This document shows positions 11,958 through 34,975 of a stretch of DNA of 64,000 nucleotides, in pieces. Source of the DNA: Escherichia phage CMSTMSU. Each line of letters opens with the position of its first letter. Position 1 is the first letter of the stretch. A program made the position numbers and the translations under genes. The DNA lies in the sequence record MH494197.1, one strand, 5' to 3'. The notes beneath the pieces were generated by a model. It did not search any database. It was not told where the DNA came from and saw only the letters and a list, made by a program, of their open reading frames with translations.

Positions 11958-12162
11958 GCTTTTTTCTTTTCCTGATGTGTTTAGTTAAAAGGTATATTAG
12001 TTTTCTGATGTATTCTTCCTGATAGTTTGTTCCTAGGAGTGCAAGAAGTTTTGCTTCAACTAAAGCTAATTGACGTTCTTCGAATGTGTGTTCCAGTATG
12101 TACTTTGGGTTTGATTTTTAGATATTGCACTATTAGTTTTCATTACAATCTTATGATATTCA

Positions 12163-17498: not shown

Positions 17499-18022
17499 TT
17501 TGAATCTCCTAACTTTGTGGGCCGTCGCACCATTGCCGCCCTACGAGATACATTATTGCAGTACTGATATACTTTGTCAATACTTTTTATTAATAGTTTT
17601 AGTTCCACCAGCAGATAGTTACTCACCGTTATTAACTATATATTTTGGATACACCTATGCACCCTGTGGGCTAGTTTTTGTCTATGCGTATATATAGCAG
17701 GACTGACCGAGTCAATCCCTTTTTATTCTTTTTGTTAGATGATTCTCCAATCATCAACGATCATGGTAAGATACCGAACCAGTGATTCGAGTGATTCGTG
17801 TTCTCGATAGTCTGCCGCTCCACCAGCGGTACAAGTACAGCCGATTAAGCCGTTTTGTAGTTCCGGATCTTTACGTCGATCTGGTTGGCTTTAGCTTCTT
17901 TCAGTACTTCAACCGGGCGAGAGCGATAGACATAATGTTTTACTCCAAACTATTGGCGGGAGAACTATTCCCCGCTCTATGTAAAACATTATACATTACT
18001 GGTTAGTACTGTCAAATAGTTT

Positions 18023-18280
18023 TTATGAAATATCTTCGATGTAGTCGGCCCATTTCATTTTTTCAGTACTGTCAATGGCTACCGGATTATTTGGATCAAA
18101 CCATTCACCATTACCGCAGTACATACCCACGGCTACGGTTTTATAGCCATCCCGGGCCGCACACCACGACATTGCACGATAGATATGGCCTTTAACTGGT
18201 TGCAGTACTGGTAACGTTTTATGGTCTTCTACGTAGGCCATAGCTTGTGGATTTACCCGATATTGTGTGAACTGTTCCAT
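18023..18280 (-). CDS. hypothetical protein (85 aa)
   Basis: Track ORF; TTGACA-N17 promoter-like motif just upstream at about 18300-18350. Confidence 0.5.
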   Translation of the reverse strand: MEQFTQYRVNPQAMAYVEDHKTLPVLQPVKGHIYRAMSWCAARDGYKTVAVGMYCGNGEWFDPNNPVAIDSTEKMKWADYIEDIS

Positions 18281-18716
18281 TATGTTTCCCCTTGTAGTTA
18301 GTAAAGTTATTACATCAGTACTATCAAGCTATGTCAATAGTACTGAAATAAAACTTTTAGATTAGATTATTGAGGCCGTCAATGGTAGACTCACTTTCTT
18401 CTTTCTCCCATTGTCGGTAGTACTTCCATGCTTCATGATAGGTGGCGATCAGTTCATCTTTTGATCCGGTTACATGCCAGTACTGAATCACGGTGAGCGG
18501 TGTTATAGATAGAATCGAATGATTTCTTCTCTTCTGCCGTTAGCTACTTCCCGCATCAGTTCATCAAAGTTAGCCATTTTATTACTCCTTTTAGTGGGGA
18601 GGATATCTCCCTATGCAAAACATTATACTTTGTTTTAGTTATTATGCAAGTACTTTTTCATATAAACATTAAATTCTACACCGCCGTAACCTTCCACGAT
18701 GATATGTTTTGCGTTA

Positions 18717-18902
18717 TCACGTTTGCACATAGTGAAACCATCGTTTACGTGTTTTGCATTTTCGGGCGACATCACCGATAGCGGCACATACGGCACTAAT
18801 AACAGTATTCCGCAAAGTACTGGTATCATTGGCGGTCATAGTAGTTTGCAGTACTACGTTGTCGTATACGTGTGCATTGATAGTGATTTCGATAGTGTTC
18901 AT
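18717..18902 (-). CDS. hypothetical protein
   Basis: Track ORF immediately downstream of a promoter cassette; overlapping frame 18635..18829 suggests a frameshift. Confidence 0.4.
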   Translation of the reverse strand: MNTIEITINAHVYDNVVLQTTMTANDTSTLRNTVISAVCAAIGDVARKCKTRKRWFHYVQT

Positions 18903-19233
18903 GGTGTATCTCGACTGGCGGGAGAACTATTCCCCGCTCTATGTAAAACATTATACGTTAATCTAACTACAATGCAAGTACTTTTAAATTTTATTTCCGA
19001 TATAGTCCGGTCTATTCTTTTCGGTCATACGCTTTGCTAATGTTTGCATATGGCTTATTGCTTGTAGTGTATCCTCTTCCGGGATGAATCGAGATAATCA
19101 GGATCATTCTTCACCTTGCAATGATTATGATAGCGTAGTACTGCCAGTACTTTTTAACTTCTTCTACTGTCATAATAAGTACCCACTTCGTTAGCTTTCA
19201 GGTTAGTATCAATCATCAGTGGATTTTTGTAGT

Positions 19234-19440
19234 TCACAAAACGAGTAGTTTTCTCGATAGCGAATCCCATATAATCCAGCTTACTAACAGTACATTCATT
19301 CTTAAAACTTCTTTCGCTGCATCGATGGCTGATTGCATGGATAACCGACCATCTAAATTAATGTTTCCAAATGATCCACCAGCAGAAGTAGGATTACCGT
19401 TCATATCTTTAATGATCATAGTAGCGGAGTAGCTGGACAT
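19234..19440 (-). CDS. hypothetical protein (C-terminus probably frame-disrupted)
   Basis: Starts right after cassette at about 19455-19530. Confidence 0.4.
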   Translation of the reverse strand: MSSYSATMIIKDMNGNPTSAGGSFGNINLDGRLSMQSAIDAAKEVLRMNVLLVSWIIWDSLSRKLLVL

Positions 19441-19454
19441 AATTTTGTTTCCTT

Positions 19455-19530
19455 TTATTGGTGTGGGAGAACTATTCTCCCTTGATGTAAACTATTATAC
19501 AGTACTGATATACTTTGTCAAATACTTTTA
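19455..19530 (-). promoter_or_regulatory. promoter + stem-loop cassette (copy)
   Basis: ttgacaaagtatatcagtactgtataatagtttacatcaaGGGAGAAtagTTCTCCC on the minus strand. Confidence 0.55.
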
Positions 19531-19621
19531 TTCGCCCATATAGATTAGATTATCATCGCCTACATAGGATCGCAAACGTTGATTTCTTCGCAGTACTTCG
19601 TGAATACATCGCCATAGTGAC

Positions 19622-19858
19622 CTAAACCACGATCCCAAAACCAGTTCCGTGACCTTCGCGGGTAAGGAACAGATCATGACCAGCTTGCTCATAACCGTAA
19701 TCAATAAACATACCGCGAACTACTTCCAGATCATTACCGTGTTTCTCAATGAAGCGAGAACATGCAATCACTGCCGCTTGATGGGCTTGCTCTGATAATT
19801 CATAATCTTCCGTAATCGCCGTTCTCATTGTGTACAGTACTGAATTGCATAGCTTCAA
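19622..19858 (-). CDS. hypothetical protein (fragment of a longer frame-disrupted gene, about 19560..19935)
   Basis: An upstream ATG with MSTTTNLARN… and a downstream extension …GFWDRGLGHYGD lie in other frames. Confidence 0.45.
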   Translation of the reverse strand: MKLCNSVLYTMRTAITEDYELSEQAHQAAVIACSRFIEKHGNDLEVVRGMFIDYGYEQAGHDLFLTREGHGTGFGIVV

Positions 19859-20339
19859 TGTAAGCTACAACCATTGCAGCATGATTTTTATCGTTAGTGA
19901 TGTTCCGAGCGAGATTAGTAGTAGTAGACATGATTTTATTCCTTTTAGTATCGGGGAGAACTATTCTCCCTTGATGTAAACTATTATACAGTACTAATAT
20001 ACTTTGTCAATACTTAATTACGTTTAAAATGATATGTGCCTTTATCATCCTGTACGCCCCATACTGATTTACCATCAACACCAGTGAAGCCGGATTGTAA
20101 TTCAATATGGAAACCATTATTATCAACTACAAAAACTTTTTATTTTCATCCCGATAACATTGATATTCTGAATCAACATTAAAGGCCGCATCATTCAGAA
20201 GATTAGAAGCGTAAATGCAAGTCATTGTAGTCATGATTTTATTCCTTATTGCCGTGGAACCGTTCCTCTCGATATAAAACATTATACTTGATTCTAAGTA
20301 TAATGCAAGTACTTTTTAAAATAGTTTTCAGTACTGAAT

Positions 20340-20440
20340 ACTTATATAATAGATACACTTCCGCACCCTATGGGTCAGTGAGTTATCTCTCAATGGATAT
20401 ATATAGCAAAGGACTGACCGAGTCAATCCCTTTTTAATCT
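20340..20440. repeat. ~90-bp repeated intergenic element (core GCACCCTATGGG…ending in hairpin + T-run)
   Basis: Near-identical copies at about 17642-17730, 23585-23665, 28068-28165; partial copies at 25866, 34322 and inverted at 32715. Confidence 0.55.
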
Positions 20441-20507
20441 TTTTATCGTGTTACCTTACTTGCTGCCACATCACGCTTTTTATAGTACTGATTCCAGATA
20501 TTGCTGG

Positions 20508-20825
20508 TTAAACCGTAATCAAGTACTTTAATAAGTCCATTACGATCCCGCCGATATTCTGTTTTCTGATATCTCTTATCGTTAGTGTTGATAATGTATC
20601 ATCGACGTGTTGTAGTGCATCAGCAAAGCGGTGCTGGCGTTCAATGGCATTACGTTTAATATTGTACTTTAATTCATTGCACGCGTTTACGTGCTTTACA
20701 CTGCCTTTACTTGCAGTACTCAACCGATCCATAACGATAAACATATTATCAGGATCGCATAAATGCATATGCACCTTTGCAAAGTACTGTTTCAACTGAG
20801 GGCGGTCATAGTCTAAAAATTCCAT
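20508..20825 (-). CDS. hypothetical protein (105 aa)
   Basis: Track ORF, minus-strand block. Confidence 0.5.
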   Translation of the reverse strand: MEFLDYDRPQLKQYFAKVHMHLCDPDNMFIVMDRLSTASKGSVKHVNACNELKYNIKRNAIERQHRFADALQHVDDTLSTLTIRDIRKQNIGGIVMDLLKYLITV

Positions 20826-20891
20826 ACCTTACATTCAGTTTCATTTTGTTCGACACCCGCATCACAATTCGCGACCTTAATCACTAACCGA

Positions 20892-21080
20892 TCATTTAAA
20901 GCGAAAACTATACGGGAAGATCCGCCCGATGATCTCCAGTCCAGCTAACCGACAAGCTGAAAGGATCTCTTTGTTGGTTTCCATTTCTGACAGTGTACGG
21001 ATGAATTTAGTATAATTACGCATTGCATGTTCTCCTTGAGTTAATGAAACTATATTACAGTACTTTACTATCAATGGCAA
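20892..21080 (-). CDS. hypothetical protein
   Basis: Track ORF. Confidence 0.4.
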   Translation of the reverse strand: MPLIVKYCNIVSLTQGEHAMRNYTKFIRTLSEMETNKEILSACRLAGLEIIGRIFPYSFRFK

Positions 21081-21296
21081 CTACTTTTTAACATTAACGG
21101 CGTGAATCACTTCCTTAGTGTTTTTAGTACTGAATACTTTCGCCGCTCCTTGTTCGACCGTGATACGATAGCGACCATTAACATCAACCATATTAATAAA
21201 GTCCGGCGTGCTGAATGGTGTTGTTTTGCATTTGAGTACTGTTAACAGTTCCACCAGCGATGTAGTTTCTTTGATACGTTTTTCTAAAGTAATCAT
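21081..21296 (-). CDS. hypothetical protein (71 aa)
   Basis: Track ORF, tightly abutting the neighbouring gene. Confidence 0.5.
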   Translation of the reverse strand: MITLEKRIKETTSLVELLTVLKCKTTPFSTPDFINMVDVNGRYRITVEQGAAKVFSTKNTKEVIHAVNVKK

Positions 21297-21434
21297 TTTG
21301 TTTCTCCCCGTGTTGGTATGTACATATAGTACTAAAACATTTGAGTACTGTCAATTAGATAATATTATATTTCTTAAAATAAAATGCGTCTTGTGTTGGT
21401 TGATACTCGATACCGTTACCGTTATTGACTTCAA

Positions 21435-21629
21435 CTAATAAACCTTTGTCAATAAGTTTTTAATAGTACGATACCCTTGTTGAAAATTGGTAAAATGTGA
21501 ATCATTACGAAAGGTATAACCGTGCTTAACTGCTTCATCAATAGTTTTCTTTTCGATTTTAGATAATTTCATTTTGTTTCTCCCGTGTTGGTATATGTAC
21601 ATAGTACTAAAACATTTGAGTACTGTCAA
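21435..21629 (-). CDS. hypothetical protein
   Basis: Track ORF; the likely start is the internal MKLSKIEKK. Confidence 0.4.
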   Translation of the reverse strand: MTVLKCFSTMYIYQHGRNKMKLSKIEKKTIDEAVKHGYTFRNDSHFTNFQQGYRTIKNLLTKVY

Positions 21630-22423
21630 CGTGATATTAGTTTTATTTTCTTATTGTATTGTTGATGCTCATAAAGGTTTATCTTTCCTGTGTTCTCGAT
21701 TACTATCCTGTTGTTAGTGTCCACATCGATTACACGCAGTTTCCGTTGCTTAACTTCCGGGTAATAGGTTACCATTAATAAACTCATTAGCAAGCTGTAC
21801 GGCCTTTGTGATGATTCTCTTCGGTGCTTTATAGTGTACCCGTAAGATGTTATCTTTATATAGTTGAACCTTAATCATTTTGTTTGTCCTATAAAAAGGC
21901 GGGAACTGATCCCGCCGTGTTGTTAGTACTGCAAGTTATTAGATAACCGGCGGCGTTTACTGTATACTGTTACACGATTACCCTTACGGTCGTGTCGGAT
22001 CTCTTTCTGGTTGCGAATCAGTTCACTTGGACGCTTAAGGTTTGCCGTGATCCGCGTGAGTCCATGCATTGGCATTTACCTGTACTTTGATATCAGAACC
22101 AGCGATAAACTCATCTTGTGCGTCAGTATTGCCGCCAGCATATCCGCTCGTTTTAGTTCTGCTGCTGTTAGTACTGGCTCAGGTGAATTCACAATATCAG
22201 AGATCTTTGAACTGTACGGCCCAGCGTTGGCCTTTCGGTGCATCTTTGCCCATGTCTTTAAATGCTGCTCCTTCCTCGCGTGCAACAATACGGGCAGCTT
22301 CACGGGTAGCGTAGAATTTAGTAATCATGGTATACATCCTATTAGTTAAGTTAGTACTACAAGTTAGAGTCTATTATAAAGTACTATCTGGGCAATGTCA
22401 AATAGTACTTTAAATGGATTCTA

Positions 22424-22624
22424 TTACATGTCTTTCTTACGTTTTACATCGTGGTAGCGAACTGTTATTTCTTTGTTGATCTCTTCCTCGATGCGGTGAA
22501 TAACTTTTTCTTTCGGGTTGAAACCTATAACGGTTTCTTTAATGATCTCAAGCCCGTGTATTCGCCTTGTGTACCGTAACCGTATGTAAAGGTTTCGTGT
22601 CCCGTGTCTTCCAGCGGTCGCCAA
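22424..22624 (-). CDS. C-terminal fragment of the preceding gene
   Basis: Overlapping same-strand ORF in a different frame. Confidence 0.35.
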   Translation of the reverse strand: MATAGRHGTRNLYIRLRYTRRIHGLEIIKETVIGFNPKEKVIHRIEEEINKEITVRYHDVKRKKDM

Positions 22625-22745
22625 TTAACGCAGACACGTAGCAAGAGTGGTAAGTATTGCCGTGTGAATCAGTCCACCGATTAACGTTAATGTCAAAGGA
22701 GGTTACAATTTTCAATTCTACTTTCTGGGCAAGGATCATAGCCAT
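22548..22745 (-). CDS. hypothetical protein with RWTDSHGNTYHSC motif (frame-disrupted; continues in 22424..22624)
   Basis: Motif shared with the gene at about 29.7-30.0 kb; starts after cassette 22765-22826. Confidence 0.4.
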   Translation of the reverse strand: MAMILAQKVELKIVTSFDINVNRWTDSHGNTYHSCYVSALIGDRWKTRDTKPLHTVTVHKANTRA

Positions 22746-22764
22746 TTTATTTCTCTCTTTTAGT

Positions 22765-22826
22765 TAGGAGGAACCATTCCCTCACTTGATGTAAACTATT
22801 ATACAGTACTAAGATACTTTGTCAAT
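22765..22826 (-). promoter_or_regulatory. sigma70-type promoter (TTGACA-N16-TATAAT) plus 5' stem-loop cassette
   Basis: Minus strand: TTGACA 22820-22825, TATAAT 22798-22803, then inverted repeat GGAGGAACC/GGTTCCTCC before the ATG. Confidence 0.6.
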
Positions 22827-22843
22827 ACTTATTTTTGGAAAGT

Positions 22844-23008
22844 TTACGCATTAATTCTACGCTTTCTTGTGAACGTTTTGCTACCGGCAAGCTGCATGGG
22901 TAGTAAACATTTTGTATAGTCTGACGCTTTGCCACCGAACCGAGCGGCACGTTCACGGGCACTTGGAACTAATACTATTTCTTTCTTGCAGATAGTGCAC
23001 TTAGCCAT
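22844..23008 (-). CDS. hypothetical small protein (54 aa, MAKCTICKKE…)
   Basis: Hand-translated; below the track cut-off; ATG directly after a promoter cassette. Confidence 0.4.
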   Translation of the reverse strand: MAKCTICKKEIVLVPSARERAARFGGKASDYTKCLLPMQLAGSKTFTRKRRINA

Positions 23009-23666
23009 TTTATTTCTCTCTCTTTGTTAGAGGGGAACCGTTTCCTCACTCGATGTAAACTATTATACAGTACTAAGATACTTTGTCAATACTTAATTAT
23101 TGTAAATGTCGTGAATAGTGATAAAGTTTTTACGACCGTAAACCTGCAAATCAATATCAATGTAGTGCTTATCTAGTACATCCTCGACGCTTAACGCGGT
23201 GTCGTGGATATCTTCGTAGAATTGAGTATCTACAATCTTGCTTAAGTCATCCGGCGTTAACTCATCGTTAAGCAGTTGAACCGCCGGATATCTGCTTCAC
23301 GTTTCCAGTCTTCCAGTTAGTAGTCAGTACTTGTTCGATTTCGTTAGCTGTCAGTAGAATCCGCATTTTTATGTTTCCTTATCAGTGGTTGATGTAAGTA
23401 TTATACTCGTTTACTTTCTATTGTCAAACTATTTTATCAGGGAGTTTTTCGTATGTCTTACTCGACTACTTAACGGGGTTACTTGTTTCGTTCCCCGTCC
23501 TGATGTAAAACATTATACTTGATTCTAAGTACAATGCAAGTACTTTTTAAAAATAGTTTTCAGTACTAGCCACCAGCAAACAATAGATACATTTATGCAC
23601 CCTGTGGGCTGATTTGTTTCTATGCGTATATAATAGCAAAGGACTGAATCCCTTATTCAATTATTT

Positions 23667-23816
23667 TTAAACTTCTTTCGGGTTGCGATAGGTGATAGCG
23701 TTCGGGTACATTTGTTTAATGTTATTCCATGCCCGGTTGACATTGTAACCACTTGATCGAATCAGTTGGTTACTACCGACACCTTGAAACACTACTTCGA
23801 ATAAGAATTCTTTCAT
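23667..23816 (-). CDS. hypothetical small protein (49 aa)
   Basis: Hand-translated; SD GAGGTGA 6 nt upstream of ATG. Confidence 0.45.
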   Translation of the reverse strand: MKEFLFEVVFQGVGSNQLIRSSGYNVNRAWNNIKQMYPNAITYRNPKEV

Positions 23817-24351
23817 GCTTTCACCTCGCGATCTGCTTTACCTTTACGCCGACATTACTAATTGTTCGCGTTGCCATAAGTCGAGTGATACAAAAGTTTT
23901 GCGGTATCACTTTTAGGATACTCGCCATTAGTACCTAACCGATAAAACAGATCTTTCAGTACTGATAATTCTACTTGGATCATTATACTTTCTCTTTGTT
24001 GGGAGGGAACTATTCTTCCGATATAAAACATTATACACTTTATTCAGTACAAGTACTTTTAATCTTTCAGCCAATGATCCTGAATGAATTTTTCACCGGA
24101 ACCTTGCTGCATTGATTGTAACAGACGTTCACGATGAGCGGCGGCGAATTGCTCAGTACTATGCGTTACACCGGTTGATATCTGGATTCACCATTGGGGC
24201 TGATGTATTGTACATCCCACGGTTTTTCGTTAGTATCAGACCATTTACGAACGATTAGTTGACCTTGCATTTTTCTTTCTCTTAGTGGGGAGAATCATTT
24301 CTCCCCTTCATGTAACTTATTATACAGTACTAGATTATCTTGTCAATAGTT

Positions 24352-24636
24352 TTATTCACCTTGTTTGAATTTAGTTTTCTCCATTGATTCCATGATTGCA
24401 ACCAATACGCCGTGGATCTCGCTTAACGCGGAATCACTAAAAGCATTAATGAATAGTCGATCATTCTCGCGAATATTTTTAATGTACTTTTCAGCAGTAG
24501 TTGCGAATTCATTCAACGGTAGATCAAATGCTTTATCCCATGATGGATGGCGTAATTGTAACAGTACTGGATTATCACGATCACGGGAAAACGTACCAGT
24601 GATGAAACATACGCCCGAATACTTTCGAACTGGCAA
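24352..24636 (-). CDS. hypothetical protein (94 aa)
   Basis: Track ORF. Confidence 0.45.
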   Translation of the reverse strand: MPVRKYSGVCFITGTFSRDRDNPVLLQLRHPSWDKAFDLPLNEFATTAEKYIKNIRENDRLFINAFSDSALSEIHGVLVAIMESMEKTKFKQGE

Positions 24637-24994
24637 CGGACTTCCTTTGTGATAGTAGTATGAATGTACATTTATTGTTATCCTCTATTAAATTAATATT
24701 ACAGTTTATGAATCAATTCTTTATCTAAGCGATAGCGTACATTATTAATAGTAACGGCATTGTTTTAATGCTACGCTGTACAGGTCCACCAGCAATAACA
24801 AATGTTGCTTTATTACCCCGAACAATGATAGCACTTCCGTGATTACCGAAATCATCTTGTACTAAAATACTTGATAAGTTTTCCATTTTATTTCTCTTAG
24901 TAGGGAAGATGTTTCCTTGATGTAAGTACTATAACAGTACTGAAAACTAATTGCAAGTACTATGATAAAATCATGATAGGATATTCACTATCGA

Positions 24995-25279
24995 TCAGTA
25001 CCTCGAATCCGAACCCTTCGTACCATTCTTTAAGATTAAAGGCGTTATCTTCTCCGTATCGCATTCTAAGATGATACAATCTGAATCATCAGCGGCATCG
25101 ATAAAGGCATTCATTAATTCGTTACCTTCACCATTGCCCCGACTATCAGGATCAACATAAAGAGAATCAATGAAAGCAACACGGTCATAATCAAGATCCG
25201 GTGCAATGATTCCACGTTTAACAAACCAGTACTGCAATTGTGCTACTTTGCTGTACCTGATAACCAGTGATCTCGCCAT
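24995..25279 (-). CDS. GNAT-family N-acetyltransferase, central fragment (full frame-disrupted gene about 24971..25313)
   Basis: VAFIDSLYVDPDSRGNGEGNELMNAF resembles the GNAT acetyl-CoA-binding motif A; …LKEWYEGFGFEV continues in another frame. Confidence 0.55.
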   Translation of the reverse strand: MARSLVIRYSKVAQLQYWFVKRGIIAPDLDYDRVAFIDSLYVDPDSRGNGEGNELMNAFIDAADDSDCIILECDTEKITPLILKNGTKGSDSRY

Positions 25280-25462
25280 TGTCAGTAGTACGCGTGATAT
25301 GTTGTATTCCCATGATTTCTATCCTCAGTTAAGATATAAAACATTATACACTATCTTTCAGTACTGTCAATTACTTTTATCTCATAGATCTATGCCAACA
25401 ATTACGCGGATCTCTTTAAAAGTACTATCATGATCCTCCGGCAAGTAATACAATACATGCAC

Positions 25463-25630
25463 CTATAACGGCCCGGCGTCGATTCTCAGGGATTTTACCG
25501 CCGCAGTCGAGGCAATGTACAGTGATTCTCTTTGTGCGTTAATTTGCTTTCTAGCGTGGTTAACGGCGGCCTGAATCACTGCGTTAATCTCGTCTTGTTC
25601 GGCCCCGTCTTTCGCGAATCCTACAGCCAT
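25463..25630 (-). CDS. hypothetical small protein (55 aa)
   Basis: Hand-translated; MAVGFAKDGAEQDEINAVIQAAVNHARKQINAQRESLYIASTAAVKSLRIDAGPL. Confidence 0.4.
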   Translation of the reverse strand: MAVGFAKDGAEQDEINAVIQAAVNHARKQINAQRESLYIASTAAVKSLRIDAGPL

Positions 25631-25962
25631 TATTTTAACCTCATTATAAAAATACTATAGTACTGTAATGCTACAATAATACTACTAGTGCTAATCTTAT
25701 TCAAACCACATGATACTACATATCCACCAGCATTACCACGGATAGTAACGCCTTTGTACTGTCTATATAAATTCAACTGCGTATATTGCCTTTGATCAAG
25801 AATTGATCAGAATTATACGCCTTATGCTAAATTGATCCAGTACTTTTGATCATTTATTGATCGATGTTATATAGTTACATTTGTGCACCCTATGGGTTAG
25901 TGACGTTCTCGTCTTGATGTAAGTATTATGCCAGTACTGGAGGATATTGTCAATAGATTATT

Positions 25963-26160
25963 TTAATTTTTTCTATCATTAATTAATGCTTTCAGTACTA
26001 TACTAATAACTTGCAATGATTCATCAATGACAATGAAATTATTCTCTTTCATTAGATGATAGTTACCATTGATTGTATATTCTAACGAGTACTGTTTACG
26101 TTTAATTTTTGATAATGTTTCTATTTGTTTTTGTACTGATTTCATGCTAATCATTGTCAA
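25963..26160 (-). CDS. hypothetical protein
   Basis: Track ORF. Confidence 0.4.
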   Translation of the reverse strand: MTMISMKSVQKQIETLSKIKRKQYSLEYTINGNYHLMKENNFIVIDESLQVISIVLKALINDRKN

Positions 26161-26258
26161 ACGTCCTGTAACGCATTCTAACGAGATAAACGGTTGAGTA
26201 CTGGCATTGTATAGGGTAATGATTAAAGCCCACCAGCGTTAACCAGTGGGCTATAATC

Positions 26259-26402
26259 TTACATCTTGCGGATAATCTTAACAGTATCTTTCACCGATTT
26301 ACCGTTTTGCTGACATTGCTCGATCATCGCGTATTGTTCTGCGGTCAGATCCTCGCCAGTTTTTGCCAGTACTGCGTCGATGAATGAATCCAGTGCGATC
26401 AT
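26259..26402 (-). CDS. hypothetical small protein (47 aa)
   Basis: Hand-translated; followed by hairpin AGCCCAC…GTGGGCT. Confidence 0.4.
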   Translation of the reverse strand: MIALDSFIDAVLAKTGEDLTAEQYAMIEQCQQNGKSVKDTVKIIRKM

Positions 26403-28067
26403 TTTGTTTCTCTCTTAGGTTAAGTTAACTACTGTTTATAAAACTTATTATACAGTACTATCAAACTATGTCAATAGTACTGGTAATATATTTTAGCGGT
26501 AGTCGTCGTATGCTTTATTCACGGCGAATATAACTTTCAAAGGCTTCGTCTACCGTTTCATACTCCCGAACATAATCACCATATGAAACTACATACATAC
26601 CTTTTGATCTTCAAACGTCATGATGATAGAATCCAGACCAACGATTTCAGTTTTTGCGATGATAGCCATTTTTAATTCCTTAGTAGTGTAGTTGATAAAA
26701 GTTATTATGTCAGTACTATCAAACTATGTCAATAGTACTGTGATAATATTTTAGTTAATGATAGTCAGTGTAAAATTGTAATCCCCTGCCCGTATAGTAC
26801 TTTATCGCCGAACGTTCCAACACGTTTCATATTGCAATAGATACCCATAACACTTTTACATCTTTGATATTCCGAACGCCAGTAATATCCTTGTTTAAAT
26901 GATCGTGATCAGAAAATAAAACTTGTTTTGCATTTTTCAGTACAGTGCAGATATTAGCCATTTTGTTTTCTCTTCTGTTAGTGGGGAGAAGTTTTTCTCC
27001 CTTGATGTAAACTATTATACAGTACTATAATCTATTGTCAAACTATTTTTTATATTATTCGAAATCTTCTGGACCGGACTGATAATCATCTTCACCGTAT
27101 GCACTTTCTAACCGCTCGCCAGTGCAATCATCAGTTAGTGAGTCATCCTCATAGTTCACGTCTACGCCAGTGATGTAAAACTGGCTATCGTCTGGATCAT
27201 TGAAATTAATTTTCTGGATGTTTACAATAACTGTATTGATGCCGTGACACCGCCATCAGCCGTTACAAAGTACTGATATTTTTCACAACCGCCTGAATTG
27301 AAACCGTAATTAATTTCGGCCCGACCATCACTTAAACGCAGTGTCTGAGCGATGATTTCATTTTCAAAGTTAGATTGAGCAATTGCAATAGTCATGATTT
27401 GTTTCTTATTATCAGGGAAACCGTTTCCCTTTCGATGTAAAACATTATACGCTTATCAGGAAGTAATGCAAGTACTATTTCACGTTAATTTCAAAGTACT
27501 GCTCTTTGATGTTTTCCTGTTGGTAAATCTCGTTTAATGCTTTAAGATCTAAAACCTGTTTACCTGCTGCCTGAATATACTTTTAAGAGTCGCTAACAGC
27601 TTCTCAGGCGTGTTTGTAGTCTTACGTGTTGGGATCTTATCGTGCCCCATAGCGTAGTACTGCTTACGTGCTATAGTACTGATAACACTGCGGTACGGTT
27701 CCATGATCAGCTTGTCTGTATTCGTCGCTATCCCCAAACTTCATACCGTGGATCGCAAAGGTCATCATCATGCGGTCGTTATCGCGGATATTGTGGGGCA
27801 GTCGGCAAGCTCGCGAGTCAGTGACATAGTGATCCCCACGTCGCCACCCAGCGGTAAAGGTCGGGCGATAAAGAAACCGTTAGGGAATACTTTCAGGAAG
27901 TTTTCTTGAACTGCTGCGACGAATTCGATGCTATTCATAATTCATTTCCTTAATTAGTGGGGAAGTTGTTTCCTCTTGATGTAAAACATTATACGCCTAT
28001 TGAGATAGTTTGCAAGTACTTTCTACAAATACTTTTAAAATAGTTTTCAGTACTCAATACTCATATA

Positions 28068-28165
28068 ATAGATACACTTATGCACCCTGTGGGCTAGTGA
28101 GCTATCTCTCAATGAATATATAATAGCAAAATGGCTGACCGAGTCAACCACTTTTTCATTTATTT
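28068..28165. repeat. ~90-bp repeated intergenic element (copy)
   Basis: atagatacacttatgcaccctgtgggctagtgagctatctctcaatgaatatataatagcaaaatggctgaccgagtcaacc. Confidence 0.55.
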
Positions 28166-28271
28166 TAGCTTTTAGAATCGCCGCCTTTCGCGTCATGCCT
28201 TGCTTGATGTATTCTGTACTTTCGCTTTACGTGCATTCGCTTTATTTGCTTTCGTAAACGCCGAACAACTT

Positions 28272-28529
28272 TTATAGTTTAAACCTGTTGGATTCATTTA
28301 AATCACCATAAAGAATAGATAGGTTACTAACAACGCCGCGATCAATGCACCGACCGAACTGTAATAAGCTAATGATCTCATTTTTAGCCTGAAAATAATG
28401 TTTAATTTGAGCGGCGGTCAGTGCACAATTACGCAGGAAGTTTTCTGTATAACTTTTGCGAGTACTGAAAGAGAATTGACCTTTGCTGCTGCCGATAGTA
28501 ACATCAAACCGAGCGTTGTATTGTTTCAT
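28272..28529 (-). CDS. hypothetical protein (85 aa, start MKQYNARF)
   Basis: Track ORF trimmed to the ATG that follows the promoter cassette (ggagaaacaaaATG). Confidence 0.45.
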   Translation of the reverse strand: MKQYNARFDVTIGSSKGQFSFSTRKSYTENFLRNCALTAAQIKHYFQAKNEIISLLQFGRCIDRGVVSNLSILYGDLNESNRFKL

Positions 28530-28544
28530 TTTGTTTCTCCTGTT

Positions 28545-28625
28545 ATTGGGGAGAATCATTTCTCCCTTCATGTAAAACATTATACAGTACTAAAACTAAT
28601 TGCAAGTACTATTTTTAGATTTACG
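28545..28625 (-). promoter_or_regulatory. promoter + stem-loop cassette (copy)
   Basis: …ttgcaattagttttagtactgtataatgttttacatgaaGGGAGAAatgaTTCTCCCC… followed by ATG 28529. Confidence 0.55.
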
Positions 28626-29691
28626 CAAACTTTCTACCATCTCAGGAGTAAGGTCTGCGGGTAGGAAACTACTTCATCAACGAAACGTAAAGGAATACCC
28701 CAGCGAAAGGTGAACGTGCTTTCTTAGTATTACTCTTTTTGATGCTTTCATTTCATATTCTTAATTAGTGGGGAGAATCATTTCTCCCTTCATGTAAAAC
28801 ATTATACGCGTTTAAAACTAATTGCAAGTACTATTTGAAAGTAAATGCTCATACGCTACATTAACTACGTTTTCAATAACCGACTGTACAGAAAGATCCC
28901 CACTTCCGGCTATAGTAGAAATCGCTTACAGTAGTGTCATCGTATGCAAATACTTTACCGTGACTGCATCAATCACATACATATTAACCTTTAAGATGTC
29001 GATCTTATCCTGTACAGTAAGCATATTAATTAACCTTTTAAGTACTGACTTAAGTAATCTTGTTGATCTTCGGTGATTGCAGCCATCTTCCCTAGTACTG
29101 GATTAATGATATAATCCCTGTAACGTCCTGTAACGCATTCTCAGGCGGTTTAACGGCTGGGGTAGCCATAGCCATTGCCGACTTGTTCGACGCTGTAACG
29201 CTCATAAAGGCGGCATTCTTCCGGTGTTAACATAGCATCAATGCGTTTCATTGGTTTAATGATGCTTTCGATCTCATTCAGTACTTGATTAACGTTCATG
29301 GTATAATCCCAATATAAGCGGCCTAAATCGACCGCTAACGATGTTTTGATTAATAGGTGTATGGTTGACGTTCAAACAATGATTGCACGTTGTACGCCCC
29401 GCTTATGGGCTTTGCTGGTAAATCAATTTTATATTGTTCACGCTTAAAGATAATAAAACGGCAATTGTTTTAACATCAAAATTGATTGAACGTTCCGAGT
29501 TTACCATCGTGCACAAATACAAGATAACCGCTCGCTACTTGTTTTGTAGTACTGGTTGCAACCATAGACCGCCGAACATGTGTACCTGCGTCGATTAAAG
29601 TACTGATATTTTTCATTTTACTATCCTCTTAAGTTGATTTAATTTCTTTCCCTATGCAGACACTGTACCAAAGTATCTGCATAAAGTAAAG

Positions 29692-29973
29692 CTAATTAAA
29701 GATCTTTTTACGTTTTACATCCTGTACAGTACAATGCAACGGGATAGACAAATCATTGCACAAACGATAGAGGGAGGTTTCATCAGTATTAAGCCCGTCT
29801 ACTGATTCCTTTAAGAGAGATAACGCCGTTTGTTGGTATGCATCTTCATAGCCATAAGTAAATGATTCAACCGCCAGATCATTCAAGCCGTTATCCAGTT
29901 CGACGCTTACATGACAAGAATGATGTATTGCCATATGAATCAGACCAACGTTTACCGTCAACATTGATTGCAC
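29692..29973 (-). CDS. hypothetical protein (fragment; paralog of 22548..22745)
   Basis: An upstream frame encodes …VDGKRWSDSYGNTS…, the same motif as the 22.6-kb gene. Confidence 0.4.
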   Translation of the reverse strand: MQSMLTVNVGLIHMAIHHSCHVSVELDNGLNDLAVESFTYGYEDAYQQTALSLLKESVDGLNTDETSLYRLCNDLSIPLHCTVQDVKRKKIFN

Positions 29974-30338
29974 GGATTGCAGCCGAAACGGTGTTAATGA
30001 TAGTTTTAGCCATTTTAGTATTCCTTAAATTAATATGTGTCGTCTTGATAAAATCTATTATGCCAGTACTATCAAACTATGTCAATAGTACTGTGATAAT
30101 ATTTTTACTTACTTTTTGCTTTCTTTATTGCTTCCACCGGTCGGCCCATTCTTTACCCCATACTTGTAAATTATAATGGTACTGGCAAAGTGCAACGCCC
30201 CGCTTTAAACCAGTAATAGATTTTTACCACATTGACAAGTTTTCATTTTAGTTTCCTTGTAGTGGGAGAACCATTTTCCCCTTGATGTAATGTATTATAC
30301 TTTATTCGATTTACTTTGCAAGTACTTTTTAATTTAAT

Positions 30339-30551
30339 TCATCCGTAAAGGATACGCTCAACGCCCAAATCAGTTAAACTAATCGACGGCACTTGATAGG
30401 TTTCAATGTATGCTACACTTGCCCACTGACCGAACTCATTAACGGCCGTATTCATTGCATTTTGCAATTCCACACCTTCCTTGTTGGTAATGACTGCAAC
30501 TACTTGTTCGTTGCCAGTAGTACCAGATACGCGAGTAATGATAATAGCCAT
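30339..30551 (-). CDS. hypothetical protein (70 aa)
   Basis: Track ORF directly downstream of a promoter cassette. Confidence 0.5.
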   Translation of the reverse strand: MAIIITRVSGTTGNEQVVAVITNKEGVELQNAMNTAVNEFGQWASVAYIETYQVPSISLTDLGVERILYG

Positions 30552-30619
30552 TTTTTAATTCCTATTCAGTAGTTGATGTATGTATTATGCCAGTACTTAA
30601 AACTATTGTCAAACTATTT

Positions 30620-30772
30620 TTAAAGTTTATCAATGATTGATGCCGTTTCATTGATAGTCTTGCCGTGTTTTGCACACGCGATAACTGCTTTAAATTCCTT
30701 TGATGACCAATCTTTCTTACTGCATACTGACATTACTTGTAAAGTAAAACAATCCAGTTCATAAGTATTCAT
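30620..30772 (-). CDS. hypothetical small protein (50 aa)
   Basis: Hand-translated; MNTYELDCFTLQVMSVCSKKDW…. Confidence 0.4.
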   Translation of the reverse strand: MNTYELDCFTLQVMSVCSKKDWSSKEFKAVIACAKHGKTINETASIIDKL

Positions 30773-30985
30773 CTTTATATCCTCAGTTAGTTAAGGTGTC
30801 TGCCTTGATGTAATTAATTATACGCTAATCTCTTAATCGTGCAAGTACTTTTATTACTTTTTGCAAAATACTTTAAACGCTCTCAATCGCATTACAACGA
30901 CCTTAACGCCACCAGCTAGGCAATGCATCAGATAATCAGTTTAAAGCGTTAGAATCGTTTCTAGGCGGTGCTGGTGGCGTAAACG

Positions 30986-31015
30986 ATAAAAAAAGCCCAC
31001 CGTTTAAGGTGGGCT
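30986..31015 (-). terminator. rho-independent terminator (minus strand)
   Basis: Minus-strand AGCCCACCttaaacGGTGGGCT followed by TTTTTTTAT; 13 nt after the stop of 31028..31261. Confidence 0.6.
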
Positions 31016-31027
31016 AGTGATTCAGTT

Positions 31028-31261
31028 TTATGCTTCAACTTTGCGATGAGCTTCGATCCATTCCTCGCGAGTCATACCACTGGAGTTAATCGCGTCCAGT
31101 ACTACCGCAATGCAGTTACCACGCACCGGAATCAGATATTCTTCCCGTTGTACTACCGCTACGCGTTCCTGAATCCATTTTTGGCTTTTACTTCTGGCTT
31201 GTCTTCCCATACTTAACCGCCGTGGCTTTTGTGCCATCTCTGTAACTACTTCCAGATCCAA
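31028..31261 (-). CDS. C-terminal part of the preceding gene
   Basis: Overlapping frame; ends 13 nt before terminator hairpin. Confidence 0.4.
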   Translation of the reverse strand: MDLEVVTEMAQKPRRLSMGRQARSKSQKWIQERVAVVQREEYLIPVRGNCIAVVLDAINSSGMTREEWIEAHRKVEA

Positions 31262-31406
31262 CTACTGCCGCCTGAATACTTTCGATTGTTGCTTGTAGTT
31301 CTGCTTCACGGGCCGCCTTTGCCGCTTCAATTTCTGCCGCTTTATTTGCTTGTAGTTCTTTCGCAGTACTGTAAGCGATGTTAAAATTATTGCGTACCGC
31401 TTTCAT
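31188..31406 (-). CDS. hypothetical protein, Ala/Glu-rich N-part (frame-disrupted; continues in 31028..31261)
   Basis: Overlapping same-strand ORFs; gene followed by a terminator. Confidence 0.4.
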   Translation of the reverse strand: MKAVRNNFNIAYSTAKELQANKAAEIEAAKAAREAELQATIESIQAAVVGSGSSYRDGTKATAVKYGKTSQK

Positions 31407-31691
31407 GGTATCGTTATCCAGTTCAGCCGGATCTCAGCCGCGACGTTAGTTTCATTTGCACCAGTGCTTTGATGAATGATTTTACATTAGCCATTTTATA
31501 AATCCTCAATTAAAGTTTAGTTTACGTTTATTAGTGTATCAAAGTTTTCTGACGTGTCCAGTTTTTCGTTCGACTTACTGGCGGTCTACTTAGTGCTCCC
31601 CGTCTTGATGTAATACATTCTACGCCTTTTTGCGGTAATGTCAACTACTTTCTTAAAACTATTTTCAAAGTATCTCAGTACTACGATACTA

Positions 31692-31717
31692 CAAAACAAA
31701 AAGCCCACCCGTGGGCT
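31692..31717 (-). terminator. rho-independent terminator (minus strand)
   Basis: Minus-strand AGCCCAC-GGGTGGGCT hairpin followed by TTTTTGTTTT. Confidence 0.5.
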
Positions 31718-31979
31718 GTATTAATCAGTAAGTAAAATATTAAACACTTTACCATTTAACGTTATTGGTGCACTGCTACCGTGCTCAAGATCCGTTAGTA
31801 TACCTGCAATCGCTTTATCATTGGCGACCTTTCCAGTGTCCAACAGTACGACAGTACTGATAAGATTAACGCTCGTTTCAATATCATAATGCACGGCGTT
31901 AAGGAGTTGTGTATACTGCTTTCGTTAAGTAAAACTATTCGTGCTGTCATGATGTACCCGTAGTATCTATCAACGGCAA

Positions 31980-32267
31980 TTAATAACGCCGGAATGCGTT
32001 ACTTTCAGTATCCATAACAGTGACCGAACCGCGTTTAGTACTTGCATCGTAATAAATTGTCGTGCTACCTTTTTCGTCTTCTTCATGGAACGGCCCGTTT
32101 TTAAATGCTTCTGGCTGGATCTCTAAATCCTTTAAAACAATCTCGCCAGTACTTTCATTGGTCATCGCTACAGTGCACTGAATGAATTTTTCACTACTTA
32201 CATCTAACGACGCATTAACAGCGAAAGAGGAAACAGATAAAGCCGTGGCGATGATTGCAATTTTCAT
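31980..32267 (-). CDS. small secreted/periplasmic protein with N-terminal signal peptide
   Basis: MKIAIIATALSVSSFAVNA-SLD: hydrophobic core plus AxA cleavage-like site. Confidence 0.55.
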   Translation of the reverse strand: MKIAIIATALSVSSFAVNASLDVSSEKFIQCTVAMTNESTGEIVLKDLEIQPEAFKNGPFHEEDEKGSTTIYYDASTKRGSVTVMDTESNAFRRY

Positions 32268-32677
32268 TTGATTATCCTTAGTTACGGGAACCGCTCTTGC
32301 GATGTAAAATATTATACAGTACTAAAAACTATTATCAAGTACTTTATGATTTTTATAAAACATTTCAGCAGTGATATTTTACCCGTTGGCTGTACTTTAT
32401 CCAGAATTTTTGATGTCCGGCCGTCCAAATGAATATGATCCGTAAACCGTAAACCAGTAGTTACCCTCAGTGTTTACATGTACAGCATAATAGGGAACGC
32501 CCGCGATTCATCACTAGTAAAGTGTGCTACCGTTCCGTTACATTCGCAGACGTTGATTTGATTTGTTCAAGCATTTTATTATTCCTTAGTTACCGTGGGA
32601 ACTGCTCCTATGCAAAACATTATACGCGTTTAAAACTAATTGCAAGTATTTTAATAAAAGTATTTGAAAAATAGTTG

Positions 32678-32706
32678 TTGACAAGTGCATCCAGTACTGG
32701 CATAAT
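32678..32706 (+). promoter_or_regulatory. plus-strand consensus promoter (TTGACA-N17-CATAAT)
   Basis: TTGACA 32678-32683, CATAAT 32701-32706; faces a terminator about 100 nt downstream. Confidence 0.4.
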
Positions 32707-32712
32707 TACTAC

Positions 32713-32815
32713 ATCAAGACGAAACAGTCACTAACCCACCGGGTGCATAGATCCGTCTATTAAATGATTCAGTACTGAAAAGTAACGGGAGTTATTATCT
32801 CCCCGTTGTTATTTT
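32713..32815 (+). ncRNA. candidate small RNA (promoter to terminator, about 100 nt)
   Basis: No ORF; ends with hairpin AACGGGAG-ttattat-CTCCCCGTT + T-run; contains the repeated GCACCCxxTGGG element in inverted orientation. Confidence 0.25.
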
Positions 32816-33029
32816 GTGGTATAAACAGAAGTCGCCTTTATTTGCTACGCCGCCAGTGTAACGCGAGGAATAGTCACCCGACTTCTGCTATTACCAGTGT
32901 ATCATCATTCAATTCGCGCAAACGGCTGGATCTTGTACGCCGATTTTGTCGGCATGTTCCCGCATAGATTTAACCAGTGCTTCCAGTTGGGAAAGAGTAG
33001 TGATATTAGCCATTGTATTTTCTCATTAC

Positions 33030-33100
33030 CGTGGAGAACCATTTCTCCCTTTGATGTAAAACATTATACAGTACTGAAAACTAATTGCAAGTACTTTTTA
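33030..33100 (-). promoter_or_regulatory. promoter + stem-loop cassette (copy)
   Basis: Same conserved TATAATGTTTTACATCaa + GGGAGAA/TTCTCC module. Confidence 0.5.
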
Positions 33101-34750
33101 ATATTGTTTGTCGTCGTCTTCCTCGATGAATTGACCGACGAAATGATCTACTTTCGCTTTGAGGCTTTTATAATCTTCTTCTACTTCCTTTAAACGTTCC
33201 GTAGTATTCCAGTGCCTCAACATATGCGGCCTCAGCCGTTTTCTCACGCATAGCTAAATTCATTCCACGCGTTTCATCAAATAGCCAAAACCATCGGTGC
33301 ATTCACTGATAGACAATGATTTGTTTAACACATTGTACTTTATTACTTTACTCATTAGATAACCTCAGTAAAGGCGGGAACTATTACCCGCCTCGATGTA
33401 AAGTATTATACGCTTTTAAACTTAGTTTGCAAGTACTTTTAAATTAATATTCGATTGATTCTACTACGCCATCAATAACATTGAATTGATACTCGTTTCA
33501 ATCAGTGCCGTAATGTTTTCCAGTAGTGAATTGATCCTCATATGCATTCTCTAAATCACGGTACAACTTGCGGGACAATTCACGAATAGTGTCAGTGAGT
33601 AGTTCCTCAAGCTCATTAACTAACGTTTTTGTTTTGCGGTTAAATCCAGTGTAAGCCGATTCAATGTACCCGCTTACAGTATTCTTGAGTAGTGGGAGTG
33701 CGAACGCTTTACACTCATCGCCAAACCATCTTCATTCAGCAAGTGACGGATTGAGCGATTAGTTAATGCTTTACCTTGCGTAAAACTTCACTGCGTCAAC
33801 GTGGTCAGTACTGATTGATGCACCGTCCCCGGGACCAAAAGCCACTGAATCGTAAATCAGCGTCATTAATGCCATATTCCGGTAGTACTGTTTCAGTATT
33901 CATTTCACTTTCAGAAAAATAATCATCGTTTAAGTTTTTTCACGTTCCCGAACCAGTTCGATAGCTGACGTTTGTTGTTCTGCGTTCAATTCAGAAAAAT
34001 CCATAACGAAAGTAGTAGTAGTGATAGTTTTCATTTTGTAACCCTCATTCAGTAGTTGATGTAAGTATTATACGCTTTAAAAACGTCAAACTATTTTATC
34101 AGGGAGTTTTGTGCCTATTCCTCGGCTACTTAACGGAAGTTACTTATTTGTTCCCCGTCCTGATGTAAAACATTATACGCCTTTAAACATAGTTTGCAAG
34201 TACTTTTAAAAATAGTTTTCAGTACTGAATATTAAAAAGTATTGACAGCATTATCAGTACTAATATAATTCCCATGACAACAGCTAACCCACGGTGCAAT
34301 TGTAACTGTAATAAACTTTTTCTAGATACACTTCCGCACCCTATGGGCTACGGCTTATCTGCCAATGAATACATTATGCCAGTACTGACAAAATAAGTCA
34401 ATACCGGCAATTGTAAAGATTTGTAAACTGCTTATACTGCAATCGCGTCCGTGCTATAATAATAATAAGTGCTATGGTGTGACTTACCTTTTATTTCAGT
34501 ACTGAATGAATCCGAACGATTTGCATATGATGTTAATTTAAAGTACTTTGATTTGTTGATACGTTACACCACAGATCCGCGTAAGTAGTTTTATTAGTGG
34601 TAGTATCTTTACGGTTTTAACTTCAGTCATATACATATTAGTCATTTTTATTACTCCGAGTTATAGGGGAACTATTCCCGCTCTCGATGTAAAACATTAT
34701 ACGCTTTTAAACTTAGTTTGCAAGTACTTTTATTCAAGTACTGCAATCTT

Positions 34751-34975
34751 TTAGTACGGTACACGGTCACGCGGTTGCTTTCGGTCGAGCTTTATTTCTA
34801 CCACTCGACGCGATACACTATCAGGACTTTTCAACGCCGCTAACCAGTACTGTAATGATCTGGCTGTACTACGCTTTACAATGGCCCAACGTTTACCACG
34901 TTCCGATTGTACGCCCATATCTTTAAACGTTGCCCGTCCGGCGTGCTGCGATCCGAGCTTGTTCACGCGTCGCAA
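34751..34975 (-). CDS. hypothetical basic protein
   Basis: Track ORF. Confidence 0.4.
   Translation of the reverse strand: MRRVNKLGSQHAGRATFKDMGVQSERGKRWAIVKRSTARSLQYWLAALKSPDSVSRRVVEIKLDRKQPRDRVPY

Follow-up and report, generated by a model that had tools for sequence, protein, structure and literature searches.

Copies of the element in the terminal repeat

The 64,000-nucleotide stretch of Escherichia phage CMSTMSU analyzed here (sequence record MH494197.1; hereafter the window) carries a family of short intergenic repeats that share the core GCACCCTRTGGG. By sequence comparison, the window is from an Asteriusvirus-type jumbo coliphage (PBECO4/121Q/G17 group), as a 12-kb piece of the region matches Asteriusvirus genomes (WPEC3, fEgEco12, G17, PBECO4 group) at ∼94–96% identity. 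In records deposited with a direct terminal repeat this match begins ∼750 bp from the record start, and terminal repeats in Asteriusvirus are 20.7–21.5 kb long (PMC13070987, PMC11895373); because of this position and these published lengths, we place the window's counterpart of the ∼21-kb direct terminal repeat at roughly 16.25–37.2 kb. Small early genes crowd the minus strand of the terminal repeat, and in G17 all genes of the corresponding stretch are small, hypothetical and on the minus strand. All copies of the element in the window fall inside this repeat. The G+C content of the window rises from ∼0.31 to ∼0.40 at roughly 16 kb, and the sign of the GC skew switches at ∼38 kb, in the same place as the gene orientation flips. 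Since these shifts roughly match the boundaries of the terminal repeat, the window appears to span the entire repeat, and the record appears to have been circularly assembled.

A search with the core, allowing one mismatch, gave seven sites, six on the plus strand (17659, 20363, 23597, 25885, 28082 and 34336) and one on the minus strand (32735), where shuffled sequence gave a mean of 0.17 sites and a maximum of 2. Four long copies were recovered by nhmmer with E-values of 2e-24 to 1e-21 (17642–17727, 20346–20438, 23580–23665 and 28065–28159), as were the three partial or inverted copies, more weakly. A covariance model run over the 64 kb returned exactly the same seven copies at 35–69 bits, with the next match at 14 bits and zero copies in the remaining 43 kb beyond 17.6–36.2 kb. 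The repeat family of the original prediction, made from the letters of the window, is thus real and lies where it had been placed. Three further copies are decayed, one at 34242–34312 on the plus strand and a convergent pair at 36064–36142 (plus strand) and 36159–36231 (minus strand).

The features of each copy are listed below, where P1 is the predicted promoter upstream of a leader-RNA module and P2 the predicted cassette promoter downstream of it. Bit scores are those of the covariance model, and strands are those on which the promoters read.

17642–17719, minus strand: copy 1 (at 17642), terminator/P1 fusion and short-form module, 39.1 bits; hairpin 17700–17719, −35 box 17710–17715, −10 box 17687–17696, module 17642–17683 without hairpin 1, core 17659–17670, P2 17552–17580; the P1 spacer is shorter than in G17
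20398–20430, minus strand: copy 2 (at 20340), terminator hairpin of the upstream gene, GGGATTGAC-TCG-GTCAGTCC, fused to P1; hairpin 20411–20430, −35 box TTGACT 20421–20426 in its 5′ arm, −10 box TATATA(TA) 20398–20405
20346–20398, minus strand: leader-RNA module of copy 2, 68.8 bits; hairpin 1, TGAG/CTCA at 20389–20392/20379–20382 with the loop AGATAA; hairpin 2 plus GC, ACCCATAGGGTGC, 20363–20375; tail, GGAAGTGTATCTATTAT
20281–20309, minus strand: P2 of copy 2, CTTGCA-N17-TATAAT by consensus match, which would drive the next gene
23580–23653, minus strand: copy 3 (at 23585), short-form module 23580–23627 with core 23597–23608 behind a decayed P1, 35.2 bits; hairpin remnant 23639–23653, −10 box TATTAT 23630–23635, P2 23512–23540
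25868–25953, minus strand: copy 4 (at 25866), cassette-type P1 TTGACA-N17-CATAAT with TG, 25925–25953, its −10 box 25925–25930; module 25868–25919, core 25885–25896, without terminator fusion, 39.7 bits
28065–28154, minus strand: copy 5 (at 28068), terminator/P1 fusion and module, 62.9 bits; hairpin 28128–28154, −35 box 28142–28147, −10 box TATTAT 28120–28125, module 28065–28117, core 28082–28093, P2 27988–28015
32678–32816, plus strand: copy 6 (at 32715), inverted relative to the genes, 36.5 bits; P1 TTGACA-N17-CATAAT with TG, 32678–32706, module 32712–32763, core 32735–32746, intrinsic terminator 32786–32816
34319–34401, minus strand: copy 7 (at 34322), cassette-type P1 TTGACT-N17-CATAAT with TG, 34373–34401, its −10 box 34373–34378; module 34319–34370, core 34336–34347, 54.2 bits
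34242–34312, plus strand: decayed copy opposite copy 7, with which it forms a convergent pair; perfect promoter TTGACA-N16-TATAAT 34242–34269, degenerate box CCCAC--GGTGC plus tail 34288–34312, below the covariance-model threshold
36064–36231, both strands: decayed convergent pair, close to the opposite end of the terminal repeat, 14.0 and 11.1 bits (E = 0.4–3), resembling pairs in phages Munch and Muenster; plus side with promoter 36064–36090 and degenerate module 36092–36142, minus side with promoter 36203–36231 and degenerate module 36154–36204

Promoter, terminator and leader RNA

The original prediction described a ∼90-bp element that ends on the plus strand in the mismatch-containing hairpin GGACTGACCGAGTCAATCC and a T-run. 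This hairpin is exact in copies 1 and 2 (at 17700 and 20411), but not in copies 3 and 5, and a block said to be shared by all seven copies, tatctctcaatg, occurs only in copies 2 and 5, with the related tatctgccaatg in copy 7. It is absent from copies 1 and 3, which have a shorter form without hairpin 1 in its place. Folding of the hairpins of copies 1, 2 and 5 gave −11.3 to −14.8 kcal/mol on the minus strand (z −2.8 to −4.4) versus −5.8 to −7.1 kcal/mol, or about half the stability, on the plus strand (copy 2, −13.2 versus −6.1; copy 5, −14.8 versus −5.8). The C·A mismatch of the plus-strand hairpin is a G·U pair on the minus strand, and is kept in copy 5, whose hairpin is a variant with two compensatory changes and for which a 12-pair terminator and a promoter are both predicted on the minus strand. 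In G17, the orthologous hairpins carry annotation as minus-strand ARNold terminators of the upstream gene. Because of this difference in stability, the G·U pair and the G17 annotation, we do not read the hairpin as where a small RNA from the plus strand would end.

The minus-strand hairpin leads into UUUGCUAU or UUUUGCUAUUAU, a U-tract as expected of an intrinsic terminator; its 5′ arm contains TTGAC and the U-tract continues into the −10 box (TTGACT-N15–17-TATATA or TATTAT). Read from the gene strand, what had been taken for separate terminator-like and promoter-like ends is a single predicted terminator–promoter fusion in which the two overlap, similar to the promoter-early stem-loop (PeSL) cassettes of T4-like phages (Arbiol et al. 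2010, PMC2839356; Comeau et al. 2014, PMC4122927). A second minus-strand promoter upstream of the cassette promoter had been part of the original prediction, and it was recovered in copy 2 as TTGACT-N17-TATATA at 20426–20398, with P2 downstream. Four copies of the window have the −35 box of P1 within the 5′ arm of the intrinsic terminator that belongs to the upstream gene (decayed in copy 3), whereas copies 4, 6 and 7 are without the fusion and have a TG-extended P1 of the form TTGACA/T-N17-TGgCATAAT. These last three copies had been called partial or inverted, but they are complete as promoter plus leader, with the same leader behind a different promoter. By consensus match, the P1 promoters of the window (TTGACT or TTGACA, N16–17, and TATTAT, TATATA or CATAAT) are near-consensus sigma70 promoters. 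In related phages, nhmmer also found TTGAC hairpins without the remainder of the element, which makes the terminator–promoter fusion a general device in these phages. Relative to G17 (L001, 7470–7500), copy 3 has lost ∼9 bp at 23639–23653, taking the −35 box and half of the hairpin, and copies 1 and 2 have 1–3-bp deletions that cut the P1 spacer to 15–16 nt, so that several P1 promoters of CMSTMSU look weakened.

The feature common to all copies is therefore not the 90-bp block, and consists of a sigma70-type promoter with a ∼50-nt leader at a fixed distance. We fetched the terminal-repeat regions of six related phages and listed all CCC-N3/4-GGGYGC sites. A sigma70-type promoter lies upstream of this box on whichever strand the box occupies, and the linkage is valid in both orientations: of 69 box sites, 74% are preceded within 14–33 nt by a promoter with a score of 9.5/12 or more, as opposed to 1.8% of random sites in the same regions. 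Across seven phages, the distance from the −10 box to CCC has its mode at 26–27 nt, and the mean promoter match is 5.1/6 for the −35 box and 4.9/6 for the −10 box. A covariance model seeded on 16 copies and applied to 249 kb from the seven phages found 74 copies in at least five lineages, and none in the flanks annotated as non-repeat in CBB (12 kb) and Muenster (9 kb).

Aligned across these copies, the leader begins with the consensus WUUCA, in which the final A is invariant and the conserved CA sits at the expected start site, 6–8 nt past the −10 box. It continues with hairpin 1 (a 4–5 bp stem with an A-rich loop, GAGAAA, GCGAAA, AGAUAA or AGAACAA), a YUA linker, hairpin 2 (R-CCC-AYA-GGG-U, then GC) and the tail RGARNUGUAUCUAUWAU. 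Each of the four pairs of hairpin 1 is altered on both sides in 27–32 sequences, with 96% of cells paired, and the same four pairs rank top in a mutual-information scan that assumes no structure. The covariation analysis that the original prediction had called for thus found a covarying stem, in accordance with its suggestion of an RNA with conserved structure, though on the strand that reads in promoter sense (minus in the window for all seven copies but copy 6). Hairpin 2 has a nearly invariant CCC/GGG stem, a closing pair that is either A-U (40 copies) or G-U (29 copies), and a loop of 3 or 4 nt with variable sequence. The G-U pairs and the variable loop length indicate an RNA on the promoter-sense strand as opposed to the other strand or a DNA dyad of fixed spacing. 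Variants of hairpin 1 recur across genera (for example UGGC-AGAUAA-GCCG and AGCA-AGAACAA-UGCU) and are therefore old paralogues and not the product of drift. The short-form module of copies 1 and 3 is missing the hairpin 1 stem and keeps the A-rich segment. Single-sequence folding suggested that the 5′ region pairs with the tail (AGAUA/UAUCU), but this was discarded, as covariation gives the tail no long-range partner. A coding role was likewise rejected, as short frames in the module vary between genera and are interrupted. Deposited genomes including WPEC3, fEgEco12, SD-2_S15, BF and pEa_SNUABM have a ‘hypothetical protein’ annotated over the element, and since the frames are non-conserved and interrupted, these features are probably over-calls.

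We classified what follows the module in all 74 copies of the seven phages. In 30 copies the module is gene-sense and is followed 20–80 nt later by P2 and then a gene; another 9 gene-sense copies are ambiguous; 26 copies form 13 convergent pairs, typically with exactly 45 nt between boxes; and 9 copies are antisense, unpaired and followed by an intrinsic terminator. This terminator is present in 9/9 unpaired antisense copies and begins 22–24 nt past the module in 7 of them. Altogether 22/74 copies (30%) face away from genes, always with a terminator or a facing copy behind the module, and no antisense copy is free to run into an adjacent gene. Within the window, copies 1, 2, 3, 5 and 7 are clear gene-sense cases with P2, and copy 4, where the −35 box of P2 is poor, was called ambiguous. 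Copy 6 is the one unpaired antisense case, with a terminator that scored as bidirectional at 32787–32803, and we predict from its sequence that it would produce a stand-alone small RNA of ∼100 nt. The suggestion that the element is a small-RNA gene may therefore apply, by anatomy, to part of the family: the predicted arrangement of promoter, ∼100 nt and terminator is found in copy 6 (32712–32816, plus strand), alone among the seven copies of the window, and in all 9 unpaired antisense copies of the relatives, whereas gene-sense copies are without a terminator before P2. Distances of 39, 49 and 59 nt between module and P2 hinted at helical phasing in the three copies considered first, a pattern that failed over all copies.

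The element is matched in other Rak2-like genera at 74–81% identity over ∼90 nt (Serratia BF, Erwinia pEa_SNUABM, Yersinia fHe-Yen9, Pectobacterium CBB and Cronobacter GAP32, as well as Salmonella Munch/7t3 and Klebsiella K64-1/RaK2/Muenster), in genomes that have ∼23–29% average nucleotide identity to Asteriusvirus (PMC13070987). Among non-coding sequences of the terminal repeat, it is the most conserved across genera. In IMG/VR, 35 stretches matched a 16-mer of the core, of which the covariance model confirmed only those in jumbo-phage contigs (∼109–378 kb); those from the remaining contigs (3–138 kb) are chance matches. Rfam release 15 gave no match in the 64 kb at the gathering threshold, and relaxing the search to E ≤ 5 over 17–35 kb gave nothing that overlaps any copy. 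The module is not an obvious mimic of host sequence, as blastn against 5,426 complete E. coli genomes gave no match. To our knowledge, none of the RfaH ops element, the sites of NtrC, OxyR, DnaA and IHF, CRISPR repeats or ToxI fits beyond a few bases. A literature search for core sequences returned only unrelated primer coincidences and no published description, and the genome papers of CBB, fEgEco12 and Sharanji, which cover RpoD-like promoters, terminators and terminal repeats, make no mention of this motif.

Interpretation of the element

Each copy reads as a gene-less early transcription unit, made up of P1, the conserved two-hairpin leader RNA and a single-stranded tail. Because the sequence and structure of the module are the same in both orientations, and copies directed away from genes are closed off, we take the RNA itself to be the selected product. 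We give this reading a probability of about 0.6; both the early firing of P1 by the host polymerase and the selection on the RNA are what we infer from the arrangement. In such a unit, the host sigma70 polymerase would fire P1 early and the leader would form its two small hairpins and conserved single-stranded tail. Judging from the anatomy, the RNA of gene-sense copies would continue through P2 into the next small gene, and that of antisense copies would stop at the terminator ∼22 nt past the module to leave a small RNA of ∼100 nt, while elsewhere two units would face each other. Hairpin 1, only two nucleotides from the 5′-end, would also protect against 5′-end-dependent decay. What the RNA does is a more tentative matter. 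Its most likely role, to which we give somewhat less than even odds, is that of a protein-binding domain at the 5′-end of abundant early RNAs that the host RNA polymerase would make from the terminal repeat. There it would serve some factor of the phage or host as a handle or a decoy, acting in trans or by titration.

Several points weigh against the leader RNA as the selected product. Folds of single copies improve little on those of shuffled sequence (z −0.5 to −1.8), and the near-invariant CCC/GGG stem shows little covariation, with a symmetric CCU/AGG change in just two copies that a DNA palindrome would also allow. In about half of the copies the tail ends in a −10-like TATAAT or TATTAT, which could indicate a role at the DNA level such as a pause site or promoter. 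Gene-sense copies have no terminator ahead of P2, so a discrete small RNA would require processing there. A covariance-model scan of the terminal repeat of the distant relative PA5oct gave no significant match (best E = 0.78). The promoters, start sites and terminators used here are predictions from consensus, and the protein partner and target of the module RNA are putative.

The main alternative is a cis-acting RNA like lambda nut or HK022 put: the nascent leader, by itself or together with a phage factor, would let the P1 polymerase pass the many terminators of the repeat, such that P1 transcripts become long and P2 transcripts end at the next terminator. The module is indeed promoter-proximal at a fixed distance, terminators are dense (after most genes of the region), gene-sense copies are without a terminator between module and gene, and the loop of hairpin 1 is purine-rich and GNRA-like (GAGAAA, GCGAAA, GAAAAU), which we take to be reminiscent of boxB. 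However, a lambda-type nut site, with a boxA (CGCUCUUA-like) beside boxB and an N-type protein, was not found: a boxA-like sequence lies near no copy, YGCTCTTWA having a single, distant site at 15151 that is no more than chance, and the window's repeat has no arginine-rich N-like open reading frame (ORF). The only arginine/lysine-rich ORF flagged at 16–38 kb (32806–32967) is on the plus strand and not the gene strand. Each gene moreover already has its own promoter, and the 22 copies that point off genes into a terminator or facing copy are the opposite of what an antiterminator needs, so we consider this model unlikely, if less so than the others that follow. A site acting as DNA, with CCC-N3-GGGTGC and the tail as an operator or programmed pause just after P1 (for example an early-promoter shut-off operator, or a hairpin-stabilized or sigma70-dependent pause at the −10-like tail), would account for the short, near-invariant CCC/GGG dyad, for the −10-like hexamer and for convergent pairs that are symmetrical as DNA. 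It would also suit the U at alignment column 60 in 69/74 copies and GG-N8-UG in 42/74, as GG-N8-UG fits the elemental pause consensus. Yet the half-site spacer is 3 or 4 nt, the base before CCC is A or G and always opposite T (A-U or G-U in RNA, an imperfect dyad in DNA), and the covariation of hairpin 1 is unexplained by a DNA site, which together leave this reading improbable.

Equally improbable in our estimate is that conservation reflects copying between sites instead of RNA function, as in an element resembling a miniature inverted-repeat transposable element (MITE) or a PeSL-type recombination linker, the former in keeping with the mini mobile element first proposed. The element is multi-copy, intergenic and present in both orientations, it flanks small orphan genes, and copies 2 and 5 are 90% identical over 90 nt, reaching into the adjoining P2 region; PeSL cassettes mediate such shuffling in T4-like phages (PMC2839356, PMC4122927). 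When four copies and their flanks were aligned, however, homology was unbroken from the upstream stop codon through P2, across the entire intergenic region, and showed no terminal inverted repeats, target-site duplications, or sharp, discrete ends. Hairpin 1 variants are conserved across genera with their pairing kept, which argues for selection on RNA and not copying alone. Least probable of all is the plus-strand antisense small RNA of ∼80 nt that runs from the TATAAT left of ‘agatacac’ to the GGACTGAC-cga-GTCAATCC hairpin and T-run. TATAAT does lie directly upstream in copies 2 and 5, and CTTTTT follows the hairpin, but this TATAAT is without a −35 box and is missing in copies 1 and 3, which thus lack the plus-strand promoter originally assigned to the element, and among the sites listed by the promoter scan there is no plus-strand promoter for these copies. 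Besides the roughly two-fold stability of the hairpin on the minus strand, the G-U pairs of both hairpins become A·C or C·A mismatches on the plus strand, and the sense-strand promoter precedes the element in every orientation in seven phages.

Returning to the gene-less transcription unit with a selected leader RNA, it is possible, though doubtful, that the element belongs to an undescribed class of multi-copy, promoter-coupled structured RNAs specific to Rak2-like jumbo phages. Such RNAs would be made in bulk by the host polymerase from the first DNA expressed and would act on a conserved enterobacterial or phage factor, either by reprogramming the polymerase co-transcriptionally or, during takeover, by sequestering a host protein that binds RNA, degrades RNA or serves in defence. 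Convergent pairs would then be self-terminating RNA factories or sources of double-stranded RNA.

Relation to known systems and neighboring motifs

The terminator–promoter part is a variant of the known PeSL type, and the attached leader-RNA module appears undescribed. As in PeSL cassettes, a strong sigma70-like early promoter overlaps a terminator stem-loop, the units are intergenic, multi-copy and flank small orphan early genes of a plastic region, and each gene is transcriptionally isolated. In contrast, PeSL ends at the Shine-Dalgarno sequence and start codon of the next gene, whereas here a ∼50-nt two-hairpin module and then P2 follow, and the module also occurs with ordinary promoters, antisense and in convergent pairs, in Rak2-like jumbo phages as opposed to T4-like ones. 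PeSL-like terminator–promoter fusions thus exist beyond T4-like phages. Lambda nut (boxA, boxB) and HK022 put share with the module a short structured RNA just past early sigma70 promoters in a terminator-rich region, and a purine-rich hairpin loop. They differ in having two copies versus 7–13 per repeat here, where in addition there is no boxA, N-like protein or sequence similarity, and where 30% of copies face off genes and are terminator-capped.

In SPO1 and T5, a long terminal repeat is full of small early genes, each with a strong host-type promoter and a terminator. The resemblance to these host-takeover regions is one of context only, and we know of no equivalent conserved leader RNA in their terminal repeats. 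PA5oct, a related jumbo phage that relies on host RNA polymerase, expresses two abundant non-coding RNAs from its long terminal repeat (PMC7318152). The inverted copy 6, with its predicted promoter, ∼100 nt and terminator, has the anatomy of a small-RNA gene, but the PA5oct RNAs are 236–451 nt long and single-copy, and the PA5oct repeat is without this motif.

Rak2-like jumbo phages (PBECO4, 121Q, GAP32, CBB, RaK2, K64-1) are phage-therapy candidates whose early programme is scarcely known, and annotation of their ∼20-kb terminal repeats shows one hypothetical gene after another. The element corrects such annotation in several records, where ‘hypothetical protein’ features lie over it, and would be a new addition to the few families of non-coding RNA known from phages. 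Should the RNA prove functional, host takeover would become directly accessible to experiment through it.

Other motifs accompany the module in the terminal repeat. The cassette promoters, which belong to another repeat family, lie on the minus strand at 17000–36000 of the window (TTGACA/TTGCAA-N16-TATAAT, for example 19494–19521, 22798–22825 and 27014–27041) and are followed by GTTTTACATCRAG and a GGGAGAAC..TTCTCCC hairpin before each small gene; there are 11 perfect 12/12 sigma70 matches in 18 kb on this strand. The cassette leader and the module share the start (U)ACAUCAAG and a 5′-proximal hairpin, so 5′ hairpins look to be a general feature of CMSTMSU early transcripts. In phages Munch and Muenster, Fur-box-like sites with 3–4 mismatches to GATAATGATAATCATTATC (L006, 17392, 22483 and 24044; L007, 26649, 27771, 27998 and 28258–28290) occupy the center of some pairs of convergent promoters and are concentrated towards one end of the terminal repeat, with no counterpart in the window.

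With 257 occurrences in the window, the palindrome AGTACT far exceeds the ∼21 expected from base composition. It is abundant at 16000–64000 and also at 8000–12000, with 20–30 sites per 4 kb in the terminal repeat, and is nearly absent elsewhere in the first 16 kb. Its typical setting is CAGTACTG in the promoter spacer just before the −10 box, and it appears again ∼8–12 nt past the module tail. AGTACT could be a shut-off operator of early promoters or a modification site. Just past the module tail in the Serratia, Yersinia, Pectobacterium and Salmonella relatives, and nowhere in the window, there are LexA-box-like sites of the form TACTGT-N8-ACAG(TA) (L002, 15974 and 23239; L005, 12587 and 19594; L004, 24572; L006, 12853 and 21546), which may be two inverted AGTACTG motifs.

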